Assembly (NCBI RefSeq): GCF_003334785.1
Contig: NZ_QOWV01000019.1
Reading direction: 5' to 3' (one strand)
DNA length: 64,000 bases
Source: Escherichia coli
GTDB taxonomy: Bacteria > Pseudomonadota > Gammaproteobacteria > Enterobacterales > Enterobacteriaceae
Shown: positions 3,330 to 3,629 of the stretch, piece after piece
Layout of the letters: each line of letters begins with the position of its first letter
How positions within the stretch are numbered: the stretch's first letter is position 1
Translations under genes and position numbers: made by a program
The notes under the pieces: generated by a model
Database searches by the model: none
Told to the model about the DNA's origin: nothing
The model's input: the letters and a program-made list of their open reading frames with translations, nothing else

Positions 3330-3629
3330 AAAAATTCCTTAATACTGATAACTTGGCGCACTATACACACGTTCCTGAAGAAAGCTATAGTTTTTTGATG
3401 GGGTTGAAGATGGCTGGATGTCTAAAATAAACATTGCTTCATATGTTCAACTATGCGTTAATGATTGCGTCGGTTTGAAGAACAGACGATATACGAAGTA
3501 GTTTACTAAAGCAGTTCTCATTTCAGGTGTTATTCACTTATTCCTTCTTTGAGTCTCTCCAATTAAGTACGAAGTCGTTTCTGTTATGCAAACCATTTAT
3601 GCCGAAAGGCTCAAGTTAAGGAATGTAGA

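Follow-up and report, generated by a model that had tools for sequence, protein, structure and literature searches.

The 300 bases between the divergent cold-shock genes cspF and cspB (positions 3330-3629) in a 64,000-nucleotide stretch of Escherichia coli DNA (contig NZ_QOWV01000019.1 of assembly GCF_003334785.1; hereafter, the window) are, with a probability of about 0.9, the divergent control region of a prophage-borne cspF-cspB cargo cassette, the right-hand 161 nt being the cspB cold-shock leader and the rest carrying promoters. A sequence-only reading of the same DNA had described ~300 nt of AT-rich, non-coding sequence 5' of cspB and had taken all of it as the leader. The first part of that description stood: from the cspF start codon to the cspB ATG there are exactly 300 bases, with a G+C content of 36.3% as compared to 47.1% for the whole window, and no credible open reading frame (ORF), since all ORFs inside the interval are of 31 aa or less and the longer ones listed start within cspF. 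The second part did not, as homology to the cspA mRNA family begins only at 3469 and leaves 161 nt, about half of the interval, to the leader. The neighbour at 3329 is cspF on the opposite strand, which had been overlooked when the gap was read as a single leader; cspF reads away from cspB, and the gap is therefore a divergent region with two promoters and not wholly cspB leader. A gap of 300 bases between divergent genes is ordinary, whereas a 161-nt 5' untranslated region (UTR) is the unusual feature.

That the leader is of the long cspA type and that cspB is prophage cargo is established knowledge (PMC6719143, PMC6379469, PMC13271884, PMC12360218); cspB itself, its place in Qin, its long leader and the cold box are textbook matter, and the thermometer and the Rho switch were published in 2024-2025. 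The corrected map given here shortens the leader from 300 to 161 nt and assigns the remainder to two back-to-back promoters, including a conserved candidate promoter of cspF. As read from its sequence, the left-hand 139 nt comprises the cspB promoter, a variable spacer, and the probable cspF promoter with a leader of ~24 nt and a Shine-Dalgarno (SD) sequence, and is not cspB leader.

Extent of the cspB leader and its promoter

Over model positions 1-428, the Rfam family RF01766 (cspA thermoregulator) matched the window at 3469-3861, the score being 158.8 bits at an E of 1.7e-41 (gathering score 78). Model position 1 aligned at 3469, and the leader thus extends over 161 nt (3469-3629), the length which we take the primary papers to report for cspB. 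When 3330-3632 was searched alone, both strands together gave a single match, which again began at 3469 (25.4 bits, E 6.6e-5); for 3330-3468 neither strand gave any Rfam match, even with E values up to 1 allowed. Leader lengths of 159, 160, 155 and 145 bases are given for cspA, cspB, cspG and cspI, respectively, in a secondary source, which also covers the cold box (PMC6719143). We infer that cspB transcription starts at 3469. Homology and literature thus place the start well 5' of the ribosome-binding site (RBS), rather than immediately upstream of it, so the core idea of a long AT-rich leader of the cspA type survives. Comparison with the cspA cold-box and thermosensor elements agreed with that idea, the RF01766 threshold being passed and both the cold box and the upstream box being conserved.

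Allelic variation stops at the same position. The alleles of SI-NP020 and of phage Tritos differ from the window at 13 sites within 3330-3675, and all of these lie 5' of 3469. Ten or 11 of the 13, including a 2-bp indel, fall within 3335-3410, and none was found in the 161-nt leader together with the first 46 nt of the coding sequence (CDS), a total of 207 nt. If differences accrued at a uniform rate, 13 out of 13 upstream of 3469 would be expected with a probability of roughly 0.4^13, or ~7e-6, a rough value for alleles that represent one shared lineage.

Immediately 5' of this boundary, alignment of the upstream regions of the four genes cspA, cspB, cspG and cspI revealed the invariant blocks AAAnTAA, TTGC, TG (3454-3455) and TTAAT (within 3457-3462). 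These promoter blocks were also invariant in five phage-borne cassettes that are otherwise just 72-83% identical to the window. Across seven cassettes, namely the window, cspH-cspG and these five diverged phage cassettes, CTAAAATAA of the UP-element-like tract and TGCGTTAAT of the extended -10 did not vary. Transcription of cspB would accordingly be predicted from a sigma-70 promoter at 3424-3462, made up of the UP-like tract, the -35 hexamer TTGCTT and the extended -10 TGcGTTAAT. The transcript probably ends at the terminator at 4127-4146, which would give a 3' UTR of ~300 nt.

The distal half and the probable cspF promoter

The minus-strand hexamer TATAGT (read from 3365 to 3360) is probably the -10 element of cspF, which would imply a cspF leader of ~24 nt from a predicted start site. 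The block containing it, ACTATAC, was invariant in the window, in cspH-cspG and in the five phage cassettes, and the cspF start codon is likewise conserved in the cassette footprint. The SI-NP020 and Tritos alleles, which have cspF as a pseudogene or without annotation, carry a T3362C substitution that weakens the hexamer. No long leader was evident for cspF. To our knowledge, the older literature describes cspF as not cold-induced. It may be cold-induced according to Zhang 2018, as cited in PMC9947658. Most of the aromatic residues that bind RNA are missing from the CspF protein (PMC6719143). Coordinates of all features are collected in Table 1.

Table 1. Features of the cspF-cspB cassette and its surroundings in the window, in order of position.
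Feature	Position	Strand	Remarks
Q-like late antiterminator gene (ydfT/quuQ type)	2248-2694	+	In-frame internal deletion of ~306 bp as compared to K-12
Candidate late promoter, pR'-like	2725-2754	+	TTTGCA, 18 nt, TAAAAT; 9/12 consensus; just 3' of Q
Strong G+C hairpin	2801-2824		10-pair stem flanked by T/A runs; -31.9 kcal/mol and z = -5.0 for the fold of 2755-2840
ynfS, small ORF, 29 aa	2973-3062	-	Downstream of cspF; annotated in RefSeq relatives; translated
cspF, CspF/CspH-type cold-shock-domain gene	3117-3329	-	TTG start at 3329; divergent from cspB
cspF SD	3335-3340	-	AAGGAA on minus strand; 5 nt 5' of TTG start; invariant in 7 cassettes
Candidate cspF -10 hexamer	3360-3365	-	TATAGT on minus strand; ACTATAC invariant
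Spacer between back-to-back promoters	3366-3423		Poorly conserved; 6-7 of 13 allele differences; mostly unalignable among cassettes
UP-element-like A/T-rich tract of cspB promoter	3424-3433	+	AAAATAAACA; AAAnTAA conserved in cspA/B/G/I
cspB -35 hexamer	3434-3439	+	TTGCTT; TTGC invariant in cspA/B/G/I; 17 nt to -10
cspB extended -10	3454-3462	+	TGc GTTAAT; TG..TTAAT invariant in cspA/B/G/I
cspB 5' untranslated leader, 161 nt	3469-3629	+	RF01766; unsubstituted in alleles with 13 upstream differences
Cold-box hairpin	3472-3488	+	GGUUUG ... CAGACG; Rfam alignment
Long-range helix, 5' arm	3495-3514	+	Pairs with early CDS 3645-3665; minimum free energy (MFE) fold
Upstream-box hairpin	3601-3610	+	GCC-GAAA-GGC (GCCGAAAGGC); just 5' of SD; conserved in cspA/B/G/I
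cspB SD	3618-3622	+	AAGGA; 7 nt 5' of ATG; read from sequence
cspB CDS, 71 aa	3630-3845	+	Annotation, NCBIfam
Downstream-box equivalent	3642-3655	+	AUGACUGGUUUAGU; in cspB CDS; 3645-3665 is 3' arm of long-range helix
Intrinsic terminator	4127-4146	+	8-pair stem (5 G-C), then T run; probable cspB transcript end
ynfU, 56-aa putative zinc-binding protein	4209-4379	-	Accompanies cspF-cspB in most cassettes (viral contigs)
Holin gene (essQ/essD)	4599-4814	+	First lysis-cassette gene; right-hand border of cargo slot
cspI with own 146-nt cspA-type leader (6371-6516)	6371-6729	+	CDS 6517-6729; after lysis genes; RF01766 112.8 bits

Predicted structure of the leader RNA

The cold-box motif UGAAGAACAGA is present at 3476-3486. 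Pairs of the cold-box hairpin were kept in 30-31 of 31 leaders, in which its columns are invariant, and GGTTTG was located 143-175 nt 5' of the ATG in all 15 homologues examined. The predicted long-range helix between the leader and the early CDS has as its core UUUACUAAA (3502-3510) paired with UUUAGUAAA (3650-3658), and its pairs were kept in 29-31 of 31 sequences, without covariation. It agrees with the published 37°C conformation (PMC13271884). When the leader was folded together with 48 nt of CDS, the MFE structure was one large stem-loop burying the SD (3618-3622) and the AUG, with a mean unpaired probability of 0.25 for the SD-AUG segment; the UTR folded alone, a state that corresponds to the time before transcription reaches the CDS, left this segment unpaired with a probability of 0.66 in cspB and 0.89 in cspG. 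The upstream-box hairpin was read by eye, because MAFFT misaligns its variable-length versions. In the longer versions its fourth stem pair is G-U, A-U or G-C, the one compensatory change seen. A downstream element of cspB is reported in a paper cited in PMC9947658. Taken together, the three specified helices (cold-box, long-range UTR-CDS and upstream-box) paired in 86% of the cells of the pair count, as compared to 30-56% when the partners were slid.

Several observations weigh against this map and against the structure drawn on it. The UTR alone scored far under the gathering threshold of RF01766, so that the bulk of the 158.8-bit family score reflects conservation of the coding sequence, and the mid-UTR pairs of the model are often non-canonical in cspB. 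No start-site table listing cspB was found, and the supplements of a Cappable-seq paper showed neither an entry near the expected K-12 coordinates nor the name cspB. The -35 element of cspF is weak. The structure was deduced from cspB itself, and this is to its advantage in the slide control. Covariation was assessed with RNAalifold on 9, 10 and 31 homologues and by pair counting on 11; almost none was detected in the helices among 11 and 31 homologues, and a shuffle control could not be told apart from the observed values. The covariation tests neither support nor refute the structure. Equilibrium folding with the CDS left the SD-AUG segment unpaired with a probability of 0.24 at 10°C and of 0.25 at 37°C. 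The switch is thus not reproducible thermodynamically, as would be expected if it were co-transcriptional and kinetically trapped. Our folding and covariation results are consistent with a thermometer and are not decisive.

Regulation of cspB by temperature

The anatomy, homology, conservation and prophage context described here come from this analysis, while the temperature switch, the action of Rho, the feedback and the mRNA decay are taken from the literature. Dimethyl sulfate (DMS) probing of cspB, cspG and cspI, which were studied together and all described as thermometer-like, showed, at 37°C, one large stem-loop that reaches from the UTR into the CDS and, at 10°C, a shorter, register-shifted stem-loop inside the UTR, by which the RBS is freed (PMC13271884). 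According to a review's account of Delaleau 2024 (PMC12360218), the leaders of cspA, cspB and cspG are sites at which Rho, at 37°C, binds and causes early termination, the cold conformation disfavours Rho, and accumulated Csp proteins switch the leaders back. CspA remodels the mRNA of cspB and, in the cold, has a moderate stimulating effect on its translation (PMC9947658), and each drop in temperature raises the level of cspB mRNA, as reported in work cited in PMC9800685.

Placed on the present coordinates, these findings suggest the following sequence of events. At 37°C the leader would pair with the first ~35 nt of the CDS (3495-3514 with 3645-3665) and hide the SD and the AUG, Rho binding would lead to premature termination, and the mRNA, according to the literature, would be short-lived. 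Upon a shift to cold, the nascent leader would adopt the shorter fold confined to the UTR, whereby the RBS would be freed, Rho disfavoured and CspB made. Accumulated Csp proteins would then bind the leader and reverse the switch.

The cassette as prophage cargo

A Qin-type lambdoid prophage has its late region at the left end of the window. Positions 134-9000 are 99.8-99.9% identical to Qin of E. coli K-12 MG1655, except for one deletion within the Q gene, and 3330-3629 together with the first 31 nt of cspB is identical to it. Over bases 2700-4600 the window shows 100% identity to E. coli JKHS016, the RefSeq annotation of which served as a guide for naming genes; RefSeq annotation on identical DNA lists cspF, cspB, ynfU, essD and cspI. 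The genes follow each other in the order hokD, rem, ydfU, Q-like gene, ynfS, cspF, cspB, ynfU, holin, ydfR, lysozyme, Rz-like gene and cspI, with ynfQ, ynfR, ynfN and gnsB 3' of cspI. The gene order over 2248-6729 bears out the earlier statement that cspF and cspB lie between the Q-like gene and the lysis genes, and cspI after the lysis genes. From the Q stop codon to the holin start codon the G+C content is 38%, as compared to 51% for ydfU and Q and 47% for the lysis cassette. The RF01766 match at cspI spans 6371-6756.

The CspB protein matched the NCBIfam CspA subfamily NF007679 (144.3 bits, cut-off 130) and CspF matched NF012007 (160.4 bits, cut-off 111). The best match of CspI, NF007378 (CspG), scored 137.8 bits and was under its cut-off of 144, and CspI passed NF049933 (124.4 bits, cut-off 120). 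All three proteins matched PHROG 729, 'cold shock protein', and their identities are secure.

The prophage had also been proposed as the vehicle for cspB, cspF and cspI. The same cassette does occur in isolated lambdoid phages and in viral contigs, and the claim that the csp genes are Qin cargo is already stated in the literature (PMC6379469). The cspF-cspB cassette was found with 95-100% identity in the isolated phages PhiR42_1, HannyBb, 2H10, PhiR63_1 and Tritos, and in 2H10 and Tritos it is annotated between Q and holin. Phage mEp460_ev081 keeps a cspI-like gene and has no annotated csp gene upstream of its lysis genes. A scan of viral contigs with the leader motif gave at least 120 contigs, and among the matches listed the cassette was present in at least 72. 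Also among the matches listed, at least 55 contigs had a 161-nt leader, nearly all of them near a ydfT-type Q, cspF, ynfU, holin or lysozyme gene; at least 17, in which lysozyme, ynfU and cspF-like genes were accompanied by a different Q and holin, had leaders of 157-164 nt; and at least 14 had leaders of 175-178 nt, at least 11 of them adjoining dnaE. The cspF-cspB intergenic region was present in 1,632 of 5,426 complete E. coli genomes (30%), almost always once.

Cassettes of cspF-like, cspB-like and ynfU genes with 72-88% identity to each other and to the window were seen in viral loci L022, L051, L021, L034, L045 and others. They lie near lysozyme and ydfU and are without a ydfT-type Q or an essQ-type holin. 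Since such diverged cassettes stand beside other types of Q and holin, the three-gene cassette appears to move as a unit between lambdoid backbones. It is thus a mobile unit, found in isolated lambdoid phages, in many viral contigs and, in another form, in phage-plasmids.

The latter are phage-plasmids of ~110 kb from E. coli and Klebsiella, which we take to be SSU5-like. They carry, beside dnaE, a cspB/G-like gene with a -10 element and a cspA-type leader of 175-178 nt that scored ~188 bits with RF01766. Examples are phage Cyrano (locus L006, 3018-3411), in which the csp gene is not annotated, Klebsiella phage pJN2-26 (L007, 3017-3407), L016 and L017. At least 80% of the leader-csp query was covered by 179 plasmid records, some of which are chromosome-like. 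That phage-plasmids also carry leader-csp units suggests, tentatively, that an RNA chaperone and antiterminator whose expression is cold-triggered and Rho-gated may be of advantage to temperate phages.

Two further phages carry csp genes with leaders. Morganella phage IME1369_01 (L010, 2188-4368) has a Q antiterminator gene, a csp gene with a 172-nt leader (RF01766, 208 bits) and a lipid A lauroyl-acyltransferase gene (LpxL/LpxP-like), so that two genes of cold-adaptation type stand together just 3' of Q, in the usual cargo slot. In Escherichia phage PHB10 (L008, 2865-3583) a divergent cspF-like/csp pair lies beside the integrase gene, outside the late region, and its leader match is borderline (79.5 bits against the gathering score of 78).

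In the 3' region of cspB, an unannotated ORF of 11 codons (MKQWLAYLAKS, 3957-3992, plus strand) follows a near-perfect SD, AAGGAGG; it was rejected as a gene, being unconserved in diverged cassettes and probably due to chance. Elsewhere in the window, full-length Rfam matches were obtained for the Hfq-binding sRNA STnc560 (21858-22071, 281 bits) and for IS009 (10265-10463, 221 bits).

Possible late transcription and other readings of the interval

The position of the cassette raises the question of late transcription. Between 2725 and 2831 there is a promoter-like site followed, after ~45 nt, by a very stable hairpin, an arrangement that resembles a pR'/tR' pair. By its position, the site at 2725-2754 may be the late promoter, and the hairpin at 2801-2824 is likely a bidirectional terminator, which would be tR'-like on the plus strand and, on the minus strand, would end the cspF-ynfS transcript. 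The Q-modified polymerase of lambdoid phages resists terminators. In intact relatives, cspB could thus be expressed also or even mainly as part of a Q-antiterminated late transcript that starts at the pR'-like promoter, crosses the hairpin, runs antisense to cspF and ignores Rho attenuation. The cassette does occupy the Q-to-holin slot, 3' of the promoter-like site and of a strong hairpin with a T run, and isolated phages with a full-length Q have the cassette at the same place. In the strain studied here, however, the Q product of 148 aa corresponds to K-12 YdfT (250 aa) without residues ~119-220 (BLAST breakpoint 2601-2606), an in-frame loss of ~102 codons, and K-12 Qin is annotated as cryptic. 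The deletion removes the cysteine-rich central part of the protein. Late antitermination has probably been lost in this strain; with ~102 internal codons of Q missing, late read-through is unlikely here and plausible in intact relatives. Moreover, the cassette is served by a conserved promoter and a terminator of its own, and the late transcript would add to the divergent control region as the main explanation and not replace it. We consider a substantial late-transcript contribution unlikely, while giving it more weight than the two readings that follow.

In the first of these, a distal promoter would make all of the ~300 nt a transcribed leader, and we hold this to be very improbable. A plus-strand, sigma-70-like match at 3362-3391 (TATACA, 18 nt, TATAGT; 9/12) would give a leader of ~230 nt or more. 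Yet nine such promoter matches occur in the region, where 6.6 ± 2.3 are expected by chance. In the SI-NP020 and Tritos alleles, whose cspB is intact, both G3390C and the 2-bp indel at 3386 strike the -10 hexamer of this one, and cspG and the diverged cassettes either lack the block or cannot be aligned over it. Homology to cspA mRNA and constancy among alleles both start at 3469, just 3' of the promoter that is conserved in all paralogs. The site at 3362-3391 was rejected because it is not conserved.

That the distal half, 3330-3468, encodes a small protein or small RNA instead of promoters is hardly credible: six ORFs of 20-31 aa do lie wholly or mainly inside the interval, but none has a recognisable RBS, the 2-bp indel at 3386 shifts the frame of the two that cross it, the Rfam search described above was empty on both strands, and, promoter blocks excepted, no part of the locus varies more than this interval among alleles and cassettes.

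The cspH-cspG islet

The chromosomal islet cspH-cspG-ymcF-ymcE-gnsA (K-12 locus L011, 1464-2741) resembles a fusion of both Qin csp modules. Window 3121-3744 is 76% identical to the segment from cspH through nt 115 of cspG, and window 6513-6876 is 74% identical to cspG through ymcF; the 3' part of the islet resembles the cspI-ynfQ...gnsB module from the csp start onward. Within cspG, nt 1-72 are closer to cspB (66/72) than to cspI (61/72), whereas nt 73-180 are closer to cspI (79/108) than to cspB (64/108), so that the gene switches from cspB-like to cspI-like around nt 72-110. The divergence of cspH-cspG is within the range of the phage cassettes.

From these comparisons the islet may be a fossil Qin-like late region, in which recombination between a cspB-like and a cspI-like gene deleted the lysis cassette and left a chimeric cspG, and leader-bearing csp cassettes may belong primarily to phages. 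We put this forward tentatively, at somewhat less than even odds; the islet counts are small and the direction of transfer is unproven. If it were true, lambdoid cargo would be the source of cspB, cspF, cspG, cspH and cspI, five of the nine csp paralogs in E. coli, and of their leaders where present. No paper stating such a fossil or fusion origin of the cspH-cspG islet was found. A phage-cargo remnant in cspG-cspH would bear on how regulatory RNAs spread together with their genes.

Comparison with known systems

The cspB leader, judged from its sequence, is a cspA-type cold-shock leader, and its closest relative is that of cspG. With the cspA mRNA thermosensor (RF01766) it shares a leader of ~160 nt opening with GGUUUG and the cold-box hairpin, the GCCGAAAGGC upstream-box hairpin 5' of the SD, the conserved AUGACUGG... 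element early in the CDS, and a promoter of the same design, with an UP-like tract, a TTGC -35 and a TGn plus TTAAT -10. It differs from cspA in that its UTR gives a poor fit to the cspA model in the middle, where many pairs are non-canonical; taken alone, this UTR scores only 25 bits. In the aligned sequences, complementarity to the early CDS resides in the UTR segment UUUACUAAAGCAG for cspB and cspG, and apparently in GAUACC for cspA. With a distinct CDS-pairing segment, the long-range helix of cspB and cspG would form in another register than that of cspA, and the two genes would thus make up a sub-type of the family.

The cspG/cspH pair is likewise laid out as two divergent genes. Its identity is 76% from cspH over the intergenic region and the leader to the first ~115 nt of the CDS, and its long-range helix arms are identical to those of cspB. 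In contrast to the cspB intergenic region, which is present in 1,632 of 5,426 E. coli genomes, cspG had a match in 5,413 of 5,426, and it is followed directly 3' by ymcF-ymcE-gnsA, where cspB has ynfU and the lysis genes.

In lambdoid phages, the Q-to-S slot is the position of stx in Stx phages. The cspF-cspB cassette resembles the morons of this slot in being self-contained, with its own promoter and terminator, in having a lower G+C content and in lying between the late antiterminator and the holin. It differs from them in its cargo, which is not a toxin or a tRNA but a host-type pair of cold-shock-domain genes with a host-type leader.

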